Shown: piece after piece, positions 7,192 through 58,252 of the stretch | Position numbering within the stretch: position 1 is the first letter of the stretch | How the letters are laid out: each line of letters starts with the position of its first letter | Translations under genes and position numbers: made by a program | From: Thermoplasmata archaeon | GTDB taxonomy: Archaea > Thermoplasmatota > Thermoplasmata > RBG-16-68-12 > JAGMCJ01 | Assembly: GCA_046761005.1 (NCBI GenBank) | Contig: JBHIFI010000004.1 | Coordinates: forward strand, 1-58,353 | Length of the DNA stretch: 58,353 nt | Direction of reading: 5' to 3' | Notes under the pieces: model-generated | The model's database searches: none | The model's input: only the letters and a program-made list of their open reading frames with translations | Told to the model about the DNA's origin: nothing

Positions 7192-9396
7192 ATGACCATG
7201 GGAAGAAAGGAGGAAAACATAAGAAGGGCCCAGGCTCTTATGCACAAGATCGATTTCATACGGAATATCGGAACCGCGGCCCACATCGATCATGGCAAGA
7301 CGACTTTGAGCGACAATCTGATCGCGGGGGCGGGGATGATGTCAGAGGAGCTCGCTGGAAAGCAATTGCTGCTCGACTACGATGAGCAGGAGCAGGCCCG
7401 GGGAATCACCATAAACGCGGCAAACGTCTCAATGGTGCATGAATACGAGGGGAATGAATATCTCATCAATTTGATAGACACACCGGGTCACGTGGATTTT
7501 GGTGGGGATGTCACGCGAGCAATGCGCGCAATTGATGGCGTCATCATTGTCGTCTGTGCGGTTGAGGGAGTGATGCCACAGACGGAGACGGTCATCAGAC
7601 AGGCTATGAAGGAGAAGGTCAAACCTATTCTTTTCGTAAACAAGGTCGACAGACTCATCAACGAGCTCAGGGTCGATTCAGATGAGATGCAGCAGAGGTT
7701 CCTGAAGATAATAATGGAGGTCAATGAGAGAATCAAGAAACTTGCACCTGAGGAGTTCAAGAACGAGTGGGTAGTAAAGGTGGAGGATGGTAGCGTGGCC
7801 TTCGGTTCCGCCCTCTACAACTGGGCAATTTCAGTGCCCTTCATGGAAAGGAGCGATATAACCTTCAAGGACGTATATGATTACTGCGCAAACGATGATC
7901 AGAAGACACTTGCAAAGGTCGCTCCCATACATCAAGTTCTGCTCGACATGGTAATAAAGCACATGCCCAATCCAGTAGTGGCACAGAAAACAAGAATTCC
8001 TCACATCTGGCACGGCGATCTCGACTCCGAAATCGGAAAGGCCATGATTAACTGCAAAGAGGACGGGCCGGTAGCCCTCATGGTGACGAAAATAGTAATG
8101 GACCCTCACGCGGGCGAGATATCCGTCGGTCGTCTTTTTAGCGGGAGGATGAACAAGGGGCAGGAACTCCAGGTGATAGGCATGCCCAACCCGAACAGGG
8201 TGCAGAACGTTGCTCTTTCAGTAGGAGCGGACAGGATAACGGTGGAGGAAATCGATGCGGGCAACATTGTCGCCGTATCTGGTCTCAAGGACGCAATCGC
8301 CGGATCGACAGTATCCTCGGACCCGAACATGGAGGCGTTCGAAAGAATCGTTCACTACTCCGAACCAGTCGTCACCGTTGCCATCGAGGCAAAGCAAACG
8401 AAAGATCTGCCCAAGCTTGTCGACGTCCTCAGAATCATATCGAAGGCCGATCCCTCCATTCAGGTCGAGATAAACCAAGAGACGGGAGAACATCTCCTCT
8501 CTGGGATGGGAGAGTTGCATCTTGAGATTACTGAGTACAGAATAATAAATGATCATGGTGTGGAGATAACATCATCCGAACCGATAGTCGTATACAGGGA
8601 ATCGATAGAGGGAAGTGGAGGGCCATTCGAGGGCAAGTCCCCAAACAAGCACAACCGCTTCTACCTCGAGGTCGAGCCACTTGAGAAGGAGGTAACAGAG
8701 GCCATTCTCTCTGGAGAGATTCAATCGGGGGGAAAGATAAAGCGCACGAAGGAACTGGCAAAGAAGCTCCAGGATCTCGGAATGGACAAGAAGGAGTCCA
8801 AGAACGTCTCTGCCATTCACAACTCCAATATGTTTATCAATGCAACGTGGGGGATTCAGTACCTTCACGAGACGATAGAGTTGTGCAATGATGCATTCGT
8901 GGATGCGATGGAGAAGGGCCCCCTTGCGCAGGAGAGATGTCAAGGGGTTAAGGTCAGACTTGCAGATGCGAAACTTCATGAGGACAGCATCCACAGAGGA
9001 CCGGCCCAGGTGATACCTGCGGTGAGGTCAGCGATCTATGGAGCCATGTGTCAGGCGGGTAGGGTCCTCTTGGAGCCCAAGCAGAAGGTTTTCATAAATG
9101 TCCCTCAGAACCTTCTCGGAAATGGGGTGAGGGAGATGCAACAGAGGAGGGCGGTCATAGAGGATATGACTCAGGACGAGGAGATGGCGAACATAGTCGC
9201 TAAGGCTCCCGTTGCCGAGATGTTTGGATTCGCAACATCGATAAGGAGCGCGACAACTGGTAGAGCCCTCTGGTCCACCGAGAACTCGGGCTTCGAGAAG
9301 CTTCCCGCTGACCTCCAACCTGATGTTGTGAGGGGGATAAGAACCAGAAAGGGGCTGAAGCCAGAGCCTTATGATGAGAAATACTACATGGCCTGA
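7192..9396 (+). CDS. fusA: Translation elongation factor 2 (aEF-2)
   Basis: [21 protein letters not shown], diphthamide loop [12 protein letters not shown]. Confidence 0.99.
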
Positions 9397-9450: not shown

Positions 9451-10728
9451 ATGAGTATGCCAGAAAAACCTCATCTGAACTTGGTGTTCATAGGCCATGT
9501 CGACCACGGAAAATCCACTCTAGTAGGGAGACTGCTGCTTGAGACGGAATCTATAGAAGCCCACGTGATCGAGAGGTACAGAAAGGAGGCTGAAGAAAAG
9601 GGAAAGGCGACATTCGAGTTTGCGTGGGTAATGGACAAGTTGAAGGAAGAGAGAGAAAGAGGCCTCACGATAGATGTGGCCCATAAAAGGTTTGACACAG
9701 ACAAGTTCTACTTCACTATAATCGATGCACCCGGTCACAGAGACTTCGTCAAGAACATGATTACGGGTACGAGTCAGGCGGACGGAGCTGTACTCGTCGT
9801 TTCTGTTCCTGACGGACCGCAGGCCCAGACGAAGGAGCACGTATTCCTGGCGAGGACGCTGGGAGTGGAACAGATGATCGTTGCAATGAACAAGATGGAT
9901 ACCACCAGGCCAGAGTATGACGAGAAGAGGTATAATGATGTCAAGGAGCAGGTTTCCTCTCTCCTCACGTCCGTTGGCTACAATGTGGATGACATCCCGT
10001 TCATACCGGTCAGTGCCTTCAAGGGGGACAATGCCACGAAGCCCTCAGACAATCTGGGCTGGTTCAAGGGACCAACGATTCTTCAGTCGTTAGATCTGCT
10101 GACAGTACCACCCAAGCCCACCGAGCTTCCGCTCAGGTTGCCCATTCAGGATGTGTATACAATCACGGGAATCGGAACCGTTCCAGTCGGAAGGGTCGAG
10201 ACTGGCGTGCTCCTGCCAGATATGAAGATATCCATGCAGCCCGCGGATAAGACAGCCGATGTCAAATCCATCGAGATGCACCACGAAACTATTCCGAAGG
10301 CGGAGCCTGGGGACAATGTGGGCTTCAACGTCAGAGGAATAGCCAGGACTGACATCAGGAGGGGAGATGTTGCTGGACCTCACGAGAATCCTCCGACCGT
10401 AGCCAGCTCATTTACCGCAAGGATTATGGTGCTGAATCATCCCAGCGTGATTACCAAGGGATACACTCCCGTCTTTCACTGCCACACGGCACAGGTTGCA
10501 TGCACATTTGAGGAGCTCCAGGCAAAGCTGGATGCAAAGACCGGTGAAACGATAGAAGAGAATCCGGAGTTTCTGAAGACGGGAGATGCGGCGATCGTCA
10601 AAATCAGACCAACGAAGCCGATGGTGATTGAGAAAACGAGTGATTTCCCACAATTGGGAAGATTTGCAATCAGAGATATGGGTCAGACCGTCGCTGCCGG
10701 TATGTGCATCGACGTGGAGAAGAAGTGA
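9451..10728 (+). CDS. tuf: Translation elongation factor 1-alpha
   Basis: [41 protein letters not shown]. Confidence 0.99.
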
Positions 10729-10764: not shown

Positions 10765-11079
10765 ATGGTGCAAAAAGTTAAGATTTTTTTGTATGGGGCT
10801 GACCGGGAGAAGATTGACCAGGTTTGCGGGCAGATAAGGACGATCTCCGAGAAGACTGGCGTAGCGATGAGCGGTCCCATTCCCCTCCCCACGAAGAAGA
10901 TCGTCGTTCCCTGCAGGAAGAGCCCAGACGGGGAGGGATCCGAAACCTGGGACAGGTGGGAGATGAGGATTCACAAGAGGCTTATCTTTCTCGACGCTGA
11001 TGATAGAAGGGCCCTCATGCAGGTCATGAGGATTCCCTATCCAGACGGTGTTCACATAGAGATTGAGCTGAGATCGTAG
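10765..11079 (+). CDS. rps10: 30S ribosomal protein S10 (uS10)
   Basis: [37 protein letters not shown]; followed directly by T6 (11080-11085). Confidence 0.98.
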
Positions 11080-11093
11080 TTTTTTCGGAATCG

Positions 11094-11238
11094 TGAGGCG
11101 TCGAGTACTGCGAAAAATCTTCGAAAGGTCACCGCAACAACCTTGGGGGGCTACCAAACGAGGTGCAGAGGAGGGGCCTGCACTCAAACGCAGTACTCGA
11201 CATATGCTGGATGCGGTTCCTTTCCTGGCAGCTCCTCA
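11094..11238 (-). ncRNA. Putative structured non-coding RNA (multi-hairpin, family unknown)
   Basis: Perfect 13-bp inverted repeat 11100-11112/11189-11201 enclosing three hairpins; G-U pairs and a UGCG tetraloop work only on the minus strand; minus-strand BRE/TATA-like AAAAATTAATA at 11260-11270. Confidence 0.45.
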
Positions 11239-11392
11239 ATATTATTAGAGACGAACTACTATTAATTTTTATCTGTCTCATAATATCATAGTGGATGTGA
11301 ACAGCCATGCGTTCGAAATTGACGAAGGATTTGCGAGGCTTGCAAATTCGGAGAAAAGGTATTTATGCTGTCCTGATACTAAAGCGGAAAGA

Positions 11393-11466
11393 GGGCCGGT
11401 AGATCAGACTGGAAGATCGCCACGCTTGCAACGTGGAGGTCAGGGGTTCAAGTCCCCTCCGGTCCA
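11393..11466 (+). tRNA. tRNA-Ala(TGC)
   Basis: Acceptor GGGCCGG/CCGGTCC with G3:U70, anticodon arm CCACG-CTTGCAA-CGTGG, T-arm GGTTCAAGTCC; no encoded CCA; upstream GAAAAGGTATTTATG promoter. Confidence 0.97.
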
Positions 11467-11536
11467 TTGAACCTTCCAGATTTGATGAAATAAGGCGTTG
11501 TGGTAGTCCAACAAACTTTCCATCACGAAACGGAGA

Positions 11537-13141
11537 TCACAAAAAATCATCGAGTGTCGGTTGCTTCGGTCTAGGTCTCCAGGTCTTCTCTGGGTCTGTT
11601 TCCGAAACTTGCTCATCCAAGGATGCTTCGCCTTTGTGTGTGGCAGAAGCTATCCTGTCCACGAGACGTTTCATCCTTCTCTCCTTTTTGATGCCCGCCC
11701 ACAGATATCTCTCGTCTGCGCTCCTGTCCGTCGTGAGAATAACGACTCGCCCCTTTGCATCCCTTCCAGTCCTCCCTTTCCTCTGTATGAGTCTTATATC
11801 GCTGGCAACGGGCTCGTAGAATATGACGAGGTCGACCTGAGGCACATCGAGACCTTCCTCGGCTATGCTGGTGGCAACCATGACATTGAAATTCCCTCCC
11901 TCGAACCTTGCGAGTGTTTTCACCTGCTGCTTCTGAGTCATTCCCTTCCTCCCCTCACGAGTCCCCTGTCCCACGAACCGCTTGACGGATACTCCAATGT
12001 TTTCGAGAAGACCTACAATATGGTATACAGTGTCCCGCAACTCTGCGAAGACTATTATCTTTGAGGTTGGCTTGAGCCAAAGCTGATTTCTTATCGTCGC
12101 CAGCATCGGCTCGATCTTGGGATGGGAAGGCCCCTTCCACTTCTTTGCTGCGTTGTACGCTCTCTGAACCCTCGCGTCCTTCATGAAAGCGGCATCATAC
12201 TTCGACCTACCTTCTCTCGTCTTTGGCTCGAGGAATTTTAGAAAGGAATCAACGCCCTGCCTCTCTATGCACAGAATCGCGTGATTCGCCACTTGAGCCA
12301 GGGAGAGCCGCCTAGAGGCCTGAAAGAGGTAGGGCGGGAACTTTCCTCCCTTGCTCCTCACAGCCATCTGCTTCCTGACATCGGTAAGATCTTGTATCCT
12401 CACGTGGATATTCTTTCTATTGCGCAGGAACCCGTACCTTCTGAGAGCGTTCAGCTGTTCGTGCAGGTATTTCGTGAGGTATTTGGAGATCTTCTTCATG
12501 ATTTCAGACGGGGGAACTTCCACCCAATCGATGCTCACTTCTTGGACGTAGGGGGCGACATCCACGTCTTCCCTTGTCCGCATGATGAGATTCTCTATGC
12601 CCAGGCTCCTCGTGACTTCCTCAATTCTCTCTATCTCATGTCCTGGGGAGGCCGTCAGTCCGAGGACTAGCATTCCCGGACATAGCTCTCTCAATCCCTT
12701 CGCCAAGGGAACGTAGGCGTAGTTTCCAACTGCACGGTGAGCCTCATCGAATACCGTCAGAACGATGTTGTTTGGAATCATCCCCGCGTTCAGATCATTG
12801 ACTGCAACCTGTGGAGTTGCAACGACAATATTGGATATGTTCCATAGGGTGGTTCGCTTCTTCTTCGGCACTTGACCCGTCAGGCAGATCGGACTTCCCA
12901 ATGTCAAGAACCTCCGGATGCTGTTTGCATGCTGATTCGCCAGAGGTCTTGTGGGGGCCAGTACTAGGGCACGACCGCCTCTTCGAAGCTTCTTTGCAAT
13001 CACCAGACAAGCTATGACGGTCTTCCCAAGACCTGTGGGTAGAACGACGAGACTGCTCTTTCCAGCCGCCTCATCTGCAATGGTGGTCTGAAACTCGCGC
13101 TCTTCGATGACATTTTCCCTCACGAAGGGGTGTTCTAGCAT
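11537..13141 (-). CDS. hef: Hef/FANCM(Mph1)-like SF2 helicase, no nuclease domain, C-terminal PIP box (copy 2)
   Basis: LPTGLGKT, DEAH, LTASPG, FVGQ, EEGLDVP, QRKGRTGR; ends KQPTLDDFL; same N-terminus as copy 1 (EHP......IEERE.Q). Confidence 0.9.
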   Translation of the reverse strand: MLEHPFVRENVIEEREFQTTIADEAAGKSSLVVLPTGLGKTVIACLVIAKKLRRGGRALVLAPTRPLANQHANSIRRFLTLGSPICLTGQVPKKKRTTLWNISNIVVATPQVAVNDLNAGMIPNNIVLTVFDEAHRAVGNYAYVPLAKGLRELCPGMLVLGLTASPGHEIERIEEVTRSLGIENLIMRTREDVDVAPYVQEVSIDWVEVPPSEIMKKISKYLTKYLHEQLNALRRYGFLRNRKNIHVRIQDLTDVRKQMAVRSKGGKFPPYLFQASRRLSLAQVANHAILCIERQGVDSFLKFLEPKTREGRSKYDAAFMKDARVQRAYNAAKKWKGPSHPKIEPMLATIRNQLWLKPTSKIIVFAELRDTVYHIVGLLENIGVSVKRFVGQGTREGRKGMTQKQQVKTLARFEGGNFNVMVATSIAEEGLDVPQVDLVIFYEPVASDIRLIQRKGRTGRDAKGRVVILTTDRSADERYLWAGIKKERRMKRLVDRIASATHKGEASLDEQVSETDPEKTWRPRPKQPTLDDFL

Positions 13142-58161: not shown

Positions 58162-58252
58162 TGGACTCAGCGGGATTTGAACCCGCGACCTCCACCTGTT
58201 TCGCTCAAGAGAGATGCGAAGGTGGCGATCTTCCAGACTGATCTATGAGCCC
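58162..58252 (-). tRNA. tRNA-Ala(CGC) with a 17-nt intron at 37/38 (58198-58214)
   Basis: GGGCTCA/TGAGTCC acceptor with G3:U70; CCACC-TTCGCA-[TCTCTCTTGAGCGAAAC]-A-GGTGG forming a canonical bulge-helix-bulge. Confidence 0.96.

Follow-up and report, generated by a model that had tools for sequence, protein, structure and literature searches.

The C-rich regions of the Firmicutes small RNAs (sRNAs) RoxS and FsrA pair with Shine-Dalgarno (SD) sequences, and related sRNAs share C-rich seeds, according to PMC8216469. Among archaea, the review PMC5867862 describes anti-RBS loops in sRNA154 and RBS masking by sRNA41 of Methanosarcina mazei. A third point of comparison is provided by bacterial sibling sRNAs such as the Neisseria pair of PMC5362039, with two diverged copies per genome, identical putative seeds and stems that drift with compensation.

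Here we describe a predicted sRNA, P1, in a 58,353-nt stretch of DNA (the window) from an uncultured Thermoplasmata archaeon, together with a diverged paralog, P2, at another locus of the same genome. To our knowledge, the archaea with described functional sRNAs are few and all cultured, and we know of none from uncultured sediment or vent Thermoplasmata. A literature search found no paper on the P1/P2 RNA.

P1 and P2 resemble RoxS/RsaE and FsrA (PMC8216469) in being predicted stand-alone RNAs in the size range of ~100-150 nt with at least two C-rich stretches that are unpaired or placed in loops and complementary to G-rich SD sequences. They show no sequence or structure homology to RoxS/RsaE (no Rfam match at E<=10), and they differ from RoxS/RsaE and FsrA in having an archaeal host, a BRE/TATA promoter and no Rho-independent terminator, in having a three-way junction that is enclosed by a long stem, and in presenting a loop with CCCUCC, which holds the exact pentamer of the 16S tail, rather than UCCC repeats; their function is here a prediction. 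By their description in PMC5867862, sRNA154 and sRNA41 are alike in being archaeal, intergenic and conserved in the genus, with anti-RBS loops that mask ribosome binding sites. However, the host of P1 and P2 belongs to the Thermoplasmata, another archaeal class, and sRNA154 and sRNA41 have validated targets and nitrogen-dependent expression, whereas P1 and P2 are known here from sequence alone. With the Neisseria siblings they have in common the two diverged copies, the identical putative seeds and the compensated drift of the stems, but the siblings are bacterial and Hfq-linked, and P1 and P2 are unrelated to them in sequence. If the anti-SD reading developed below is true, SD masking by sRNAs with C-rich loops would reach a third archaeal lineage.

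Conservation, promoter and strand of P1

The window carries a plus-strand run of genes for EF-2, EF-1alpha and ribosomal protein S10 (rps10), followed by tRNA-Ala(UGC), and P1 is located in the last spacer, 12 nt from the rps10 stop codon and converging on rps10 (Table 1). The metagenome-assembled genome (MAG) to which the window belongs (G000) is 94% complete. Six sequencing runs are listed for the stretch, all of DNA from hydrothermal vent metagenomes, and three of the six contain part of it.

A sequence-only reading of the window had proposed that the rps10-tRNA-Ala spacers of relatives be compared. When 41 related genomes were searched at the DNA level, the element was found in this spacer in 6 of the 7 other genus members with 86-91% identity, and matches outside the genus were at chance level only. 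The genus member for which this search yielded no P1 (G003) is 88% complete and assembled into 450 contigs. Regional identities were calculated for each ortholog against the window copy in a syntenic alignment of the six sister genomes (Table 1). Since the identity in the RNA block is higher than at the third-codon positions of rps10 and in the flanks, P1 is under purifying selection within sharp bounds, and its conservation, as judged from this alignment, is well above neutral. An indel of 15-21 nt is present between the rps10 stop codon and position 11092.

Table 1. Features of the P1 locus and its surroundings (positions in the window; identities are to the orthologs in six sister genomes)
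Feature	Position	Strand	Remarks
EF-2	7192-9396	+	
EF-1alpha	9451-10728	+	
rps10 (ribosomal protein S10)	10765-11079	+	Pfam Ribosomal_S10, E=1.6e-24; convergent with the sRNA; 85-88% identity (CDS), 65-73% (third-codon positions)
T6 run	11080-11085		likely rps10 terminator
Predicted sRNA P1, ~146 nt (RNA block)	11092-11237	-	88-93% identity; full-length covariance model matches of 146-183 bits
3' CCUC	11095-11098	-	can pair with 5' GAGG, 11234-11237 (tentative)
Long closing stem, 3' arm (CGCAGUACUCGAC)	11100-11112	-	perfect 13-bp inverted repeat
U4-5 tract	11113-11117	-	in the junction before the 3' arm; UUUU in 14/14 copies
Hairpin 2 domain, long and irregular	11121-11161	-	UCG-GGU-GCC ... GGU-ACC-CGA in P1; RNAalifold consensus and per-copy MFE
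24-codon ORF (AUG) inside the sRNA	11203-11129	-	same-frame GUG counterpart in P2
C6 run	11145-11150	-	near apex of hairpin 2; invariant in 14/14 copies
Hairpin 1, GUGCAGG-CCCCUCC-UCUGCAC	11163-11183	-	7-nt loop CCCCUCC, 11170-11176
Long closing stem, 5' arm (GUCGAGUACUGCG)	11189-11201	-	perfect 13-bp inverted repeat
5' hairpin domain	11206-11232	-	UGCC-AGAAA-GGCA in orthologs; both-side changes in 4/4 pairs when P1 and P2 are compared, 94% of cells paired
14-nt spacer	11238-11251		50-64% identity
Promoter block	11252-11275	-	box TTAATAG, 11259-11265, after purine/A-rich CAGATA(A/G)A; 83-88% identity
Intergenic DNA beyond promoter block	11276-11352		19-32% identity
tRNA-Ala promoter	near 11355-11368		diverges from the P1 promoter
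tRNA-Ala(UGC)	11393-11466	+	ARAGORN and Rfam, 64.5 bits
DEAD-box helicase gene	11537-13141	-	

The 5' end of P1 was defined by the onset of conservation and by promoter spacing. We place the start at about G11237, because a BRE/TATA-like box that matches the boxes of tRNA genes, TTAATAG, is found on the minus strand 21 nt upstream of the conserved GAGGAG. The 3' end may lie at about 11083-11092; no oligo-U terminator was found on the minus strand past this end. The conserved upstream block reads CAGATAGAG-TTTAATAG on the minus strand (AAAAA-TTAATAG in the window copy), and the arrangement at P1 is TTTAATAG, 21 variable nucleotides and GAGGAG. The geometry at P2 is alike, with an A-rich CTTAATAT, 21 nt and AGAGGA. 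The tRNA genes of G000 are preceded by an A-rich stretch and then CTTAATAT, TTTAATAT, TTTAAAT or TTAAATA; such a hexamer was found upstream of 11 of the 29 tRNAs, mostly at -29 to -32, as compared to a chance expectation of 0.012 per 27-nt window.

The orientation claimed in the sequence-only reading was borne out for P1, both by the promoter at the right distance and by the pairing: standard pairs fill 236 of the 239 cells of the P1 consensus structure when it is read as minus-strand RNA versus 217 when it is read from the plus strand, and the minus strand has 20 G.U cells versus a single A.C cell. Changes in the closing stem within the six full-length P1 orthologs are exclusively of the type U-A to U-G. 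Folding on both strands, which had been suggested, favoured the minus strand of P1 in the pair counts and in RNAalifold (-45.1 versus -42.6 kcal/mol), but the single-sequence MFE z-scores were weak and unremarkable (-1.74 for the minus strand and -1.99 for the plus strand). The comparisons among genomes support P1 as a minus-strand gene with its own promoter. For P2, the tests lean toward the opposite strand: under the structure derived from P1, standard pairs occupy 206 of 244 cells on the given strand and 215 of 244 when the strand is reversed, 8 G.U cells stand against 17 A.C cells, and RNAalifold gave -45.5 kcal/mol for the given strand versus -49.1 kcal/mol for the opposite one. The strand assigned to P2 therefore rests on its homology to P1 and on its oriented promoter.

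The paralog P2 and the range of the family

A search of 79 genomes from the order with a covariance model built from the six P1 orthologs (R1) gave matches in 10 of these, including 8 genus members. All members of the genus were recovered, and in all seven sister genomes there was in addition a second, weak full-length match of ~137 nt (24-30 bits), which we refer to as P2. The matches in G011 and G018 were 70-80 nt long, with a GC content of 0.66-0.73 and scores of 19.7-20.9 bits, and were judged false on sequence; weak matches in G000 (C15:27568, C11 and C12) look like chance matches in coding DNA. Using a second model built from P1 and P2 together (R2), the P2 of the window's own genome was found at G000:C15:6622-6764 with a score of 89.8 bits. 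The census of the genus is P2 in 8 of 8 genomes and P1 in 7 of 8.

The search of the own genome for further copies, named in advance as a check for a MITE, yielded no second copy by DNA similarity and one divergent paralog by covariance model. A MITE or other dispersed repeat was rejected, with BLAST returning the locus itself plus chance matches of 14-21 nt and the covariance model returning two copies at fixed loci.

In G000, P2 is neighboured by genes for a CDP-alcohol phosphatidyltransferase and a ZIP transporter (Pfam, G000 only), and in the sister genomes the sequences downstream of P2 look similar to one another. Downstream of P2 come first a U-rich stretch and then the TATA-like box of the next gene. 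For the ZIP transporter gene after P2 (L047:1439-1500, G000:C15, minus strand), this box is placed ~23 nt before the GUG start codon in the sister genomes, so that the ZIP transporter mRNA is probably leaderless.

Outside the genus, R2 gave no match in any of 33 genomes of the order (E<=0.1) or in any of 147 genomes of the class, representing 65 other genera (E<=0.01, strict filters, 20 candidates scored per genome). A motif pattern run over all GTDB species genomes returned 10 stretches, of which nine were Thermoplasmata MAG records confirmed by R2 and one was a Deltaproteobacteria record that R2 did not confirm; in metagenome contigs the pattern returned four stretches, none of them confirmed by R2. 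In five other families of the order, the models found nothing after rps10; the gene is followed in other families by tRNA-Ala after ~40 nt (G012) or ~260 nt (G011), or by other genes. As far as searched, the two siblings appear to form an sRNA family restricted to one genus of uncultured Thermoplasmata, and we consider this a genuine, previously uncatalogued and genus-restricted archaeal sRNA family. In such a delimited, promoter-driven family with two diverged siblings, helices and candidate seeds can be defined without culture, and the family is usable for RNA family databases and for annotation of these MAGs.

Fold and covariation

A perfect 13-bp stem had been claimed for the element, and it is present (Table 1). 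Its arms are separated by 76 nt, and it is the sole perfect inverted repeat of at least 13 nt with a gap of at most 120 nt in the window. In first-order Markov simulations, one or more repeats of this kind arose in 18 of 200 runs, so that the repeat is only mildly unusual when taken alone. Since the inverted repeat and the single-sequence folding are both weak alone, the case rests on the comparison with other genomes.

Covariation, another of the checks proposed, was counted on an alignment of 14 copies of P1 and P2 that was fitted to the model; in this alignment 91.5% of the cells contain standard pairs versus 30-45% when the partners are slid by 1-3 columns. Both sides have changed in 18 of the 40 pairs, and the observed values were reached by none of 500 shuffles, but most of the double changes separate P1 from P2 and therefore represent few independent events. 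Two compensated pairs of the long stem were also seen in a sequence-only MAFFT alignment, in which the arms are free of gaps. Among the 14 copies, eight pairs of the long stem are invariant, two are compensated (U-A to C-G and U-A to G-C) and one shows wobble changes only, while two U-A pairs have changed to U-G within P1. Two inner pairs are unpaired in P2, and the stem extends outward instead.

Three hairpins inside the stem, one of them capped by a UNCG loop, had been predicted, and one third of this prediction is supported. The hairpin with the CCCCUCC loop (hairpin 1) is present and conserved with compensatory changes: 4 of its 6 stem pairs have changed on both sides in the 14 copies, a G-C pair has become A-U inside P2 (L035), and a C.A mismatch is repaired to U-A in the P2 of the window's own genome. 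The other two, UUGG-UAGCCCC-CCAA and AAGGUUGU-UGCG-GUGACCUU, can form in the window copy but are broken in the orthologs, where CCAA becomes CCAU and AAGG becomes UAGG, UAUG, UUGG or UAAG, in each case opposite an invariant partner strand. The UGCG tetraloop is absent from P2, and a better reading of this region is a single long irregular hairpin (hairpin 2) with the C-run near its apex, the inner pairing and register of which differ between P1 and P2.

The pairs of the 5' hairpin are UGCC/GGCA in P1 and CGGAA/UUCCG in P2. A GCTG/CAGC pairing that had been proposed remains as an alternative in the window copy; it competes with UGCC/GGCA, which is the one that covaries with P2. The window copy (11206-11232, minus strand) has itself lost the UGCC/GGCA hairpin that is kept in the five other full-length orthologs, with GGAAAGGAA in place of GAAAGGCAA. 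A terminal TGAGG/CCTCA pairing had also been put forward. Of this, GAGG/CCUC can pair, with both-side changes in 3 of the 4 pairs, but the helix is weak, with 82.7% of the cells paired. We suggest tentatively that it closes the molecule.

Candidate functions and known RNA classes

The sequence CCCUCC in loop 1 is identical in all 14 copies, where it is placed in a hairpin loop of 6-7 nt with an unpaired probability of ~0.9. Loop 1 contains CCUCC, the anti-SD pentamer of the 16S rRNA of the same organism, the 3' end of which reads ...GGATCACCTCCTTTG (start of contig C86) with the tail GGAUCACCUCCU, CCUCCU. The host uses SD sequences, as seen in 1286 crude ORFs, where GGAGG upstream of the first ATG peaks at -12/-11 (34 and 22 matches; background 1-5). 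The earlier claim that a loop exposes CCUCC as the complement of the host SD is thereby upheld, and two features of the class of C-rich/anti-SD sRNAs were found, namely a C-rich/anti-SD sequence displayed unpaired and host mRNAs with the complementary SD.

Other motifs are equally or nearly as constant. Apart from the C6 run in hairpin 2, the sequence CGGUGA is present on the 3' side of this hairpin in 13 of the 14 copies. The U tract, with the context G-R-UUUU(U)-S between arm 2 and the closing stem in all 14 copies, resembles an Sm site, the binding consensus of which is a single-stranded R-A-U4-6-G-R flanked by stems. Two LSM-domain genes were identified in G000, at C81:85-276 and C56:1686-1880, and the U tract may be an Lsm/SmAP site.

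The P1 locus is very probably a real non-coding RNA gene. Because its loop is identical to the sequence with which the ribosome docks on mRNAs, the sRNA probably regulates translation. Our preferred reading, which we hold tentatively and with somewhat less than even confidence, is that P1 and P2 are sibling trans-acting sRNAs that mask SD sequences, possibly assisted by Lsm; it is suggested by the layout of the anti-SD loops, which matches that of RoxS/FsrA and of M. mazei sRNA154/sRNA41. P1 would be transcribed from its own BRE/TATA promoter as a stand-alone RNA of ~146 nt that folds into a 5' hairpin and a closing stem of 10-13 bp around a three-way junction. Of the two arms that leave this junction, arm 1 would display CCCUCC and the longer, irregular arm 2 the C6 run, with the U4-5 tract in the junction. 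The exposed C-rich loops would then pair in trans with the G-rich SD regions (GGAGG...) in some of the mRNAs and block the binding of the 30S subunit, and the U tract may serve as an Lsm/SmAP site. The CCUCC core is a short seed of 5 nt only. When a 17-nt segment with loop 1 was compared by RNAduplex with positions -35 to +15 of 2312 crude starts, 337 matches at <=-16 kcal/mol were obtained versus 183-335 for five shuffled loops; the scan has no discriminating power for targets.

It is conceivable, if unlikely, that P1 and P2 are real sRNAs of another kind, which bind proteins as part of an RNP or as a protein sponge, and in which the invariant motifs (C-rich loops, CGGUGA, U tract) would not be antisense seeds but sites recognized by proteins, e.g., of the KH/poly(C) or Lsm type. 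Such a scaffold would fit with the shortness of the invariant motifs, several of which are in or near structured contexts, with a U tract like an Sm site in a genome with two LSM genes, with the lack of specific targets that stood out in the duplex scan, and with the closing stem and internal multiloop, which recall the layouts of Y-like RNAs. However, a search of the 94%-complete G000 revealed no TROVE/Ro gene, the Rfam scans linked the element to no RNP RNA, Y RNA, SRP and RNase P included, and the exact anti-SD pentamer in a host that uses SD sequences would be left as a coincidence. A more far-reaching proposal, which we consider quite unlikely, is that an archaeal RNP with bound Lsm and with P1 and P2 as its RNA cores would be a global gate on SD-dependent translation. 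By offering an imitation of the 16S anti-SD tail (CCUCC) in trans, the two RNAs would compete with 30S subunits for mRNAs that carry an SD, with the SD-like GAGGAG 5' end switching the loop between a masked and an exposed state, and would thus be a lineage-specific, riboswitch-like "anti-SD decoy" that is not gene-specific.

The RNA might also be directed at the ribosome itself, an improbable arrangement in which the 5' GAGGAG of P1 or AGAGGA of P2 would dock on the 16S tail as an SD mimic, CUCCUC/UCCUUU of hairpin 1 would mask the 5' end in an intramolecular switch, and the RNA would act on 30S subunits, by titrating or marking them, and not on mRNAs. The GAGGAG of P1 is perfectly complementary to CUCCUC (loop 1 plus its 3' arm), three P2 copies allow AGAGGA to pair with UCCUUU, and the 5' bases have a second, exclusive partner in the 3' CCUC; but the pseudoknot is mismatched in four P2 copies (UCCUAU), purine runs of 4-6 nt are common at 5' ends, and the proposal comes purely from inspection of the sequence. 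Highly improbable is a small protein of 20-24 amino acids, encoded from the AUG at 11203 in P1 (MSSTAFECRPLLCTSFGSPPRLLR) and from a GUG at the same place in P2. Although the frame is open in both, with its start codon (AUG/GUG) at the same position, the ORF was judged non-coding because indels of 1-2 nt among the orthologs shift the C-terminus and stop (20, 24 or >40 amino acids); moreover, the in-frame substitutions are nearly all non-synonymous (1 synonymous, in P2) and are located in loops and junctions or compensate pairs, and there is no SD 5-12 nt before the start. Equally hard to credit is the reading as a cis-acting part of the str/rps10 locus, be it a bidirectional terminator, rps10 antisense RNA, protein-bound DNA palindrome or MITE relic, for which the convergent position 12 nt from the rps10 stop and the perfect palindromic stem might speak, since a homologous copy (P2) is found at an unrelated locus, each genome has only two copies at fixed loci, the U-A to U-G changes within P1 are tolerated only as minus-strand RNA, the element has its own promoter and other families of the order have no such element after rps10.

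The sequence-only reading had seen no tRNA, SRP, RNase P or C/D-box identity in the element, and this was confirmed by the Rfam scan that it called for and by inspection. With Rfam 15 (4227 models), four tRNAs were the only matches in the window at the gathering score, and at E<=10 there was no match over the element in positions 10900-11500 and only two chance lncRNA matches (12.8-14 bits) at the P2 locus. The model RF01820, which we take to be the RsaE/RoxS family, matched neither P1 nor P2 at E<=10. Together with the conservation, the covariation with P2 and the promoter, this agrees with the view of a novel structured minus-strand non-coding RNA outside the known families. Elsewhere in the window, a tRNA match of 91 nt (58162-58252, minus strand; RF00005, 55.5 bits) was missed by ARAGORN, and its length suggests an intron-containing archaeal tRNA.

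Several classes were considered individually and rejected. C/D-box and H/ACA guides gave no Rfam match of snoRNA type and no conserved box was seen by eye; GUGAUGA is confined to a single P2 copy, and on the minus strand the stem is not followed by an ACA. Y RNA and Ro RNPs were set aside on the TROVE and Rfam results given above, and K-turns, hammerheads and other ribozyme cores were neither seen by eye nor matched in Rfam. The window copy shares GGUAGCC...UGCGG with the consensus of 16S helix 45, but mimicry was rejected, as helix 45 of the host reads GGTATCTG...CTGCAGATGG and P2 has no such motif. The SRP RNA is located elsewhere than the P1/P2 element.

An archaeal RNase P RNA (RF00373), including its reduced form, was likewise rejected, since the element gave no match and all seven sister genomes have a normal one, 269-274 nt long (203-215 bits), elsewhere. 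The contigs of G000 contain no RNase P RNA match and the 3' end of its 16S rRNA is located at the very start of contig C86, which indicates that rRNA and non-coding RNA loci are fragmented in this MAG; the missing RNase P RNA is an assembly gap. One sister genome contains a partial look-alike of RNase P RNA, unrelated to the P1/P2 family, of 146 nt (L046:2814-2959; G004:C204:8898-9043, plus strand) with a score of 47.2 bits, below the cut-off. It keeps cores like GGGAGAAAGUC and ACAGAAGGGGGCUUA; the genuine RNase P RNA of this sister genome lies ~1 kb upstream of it, and a weaker look-alike (24.8 bits) was found in another sister genome at G002:C169:1003-1147.
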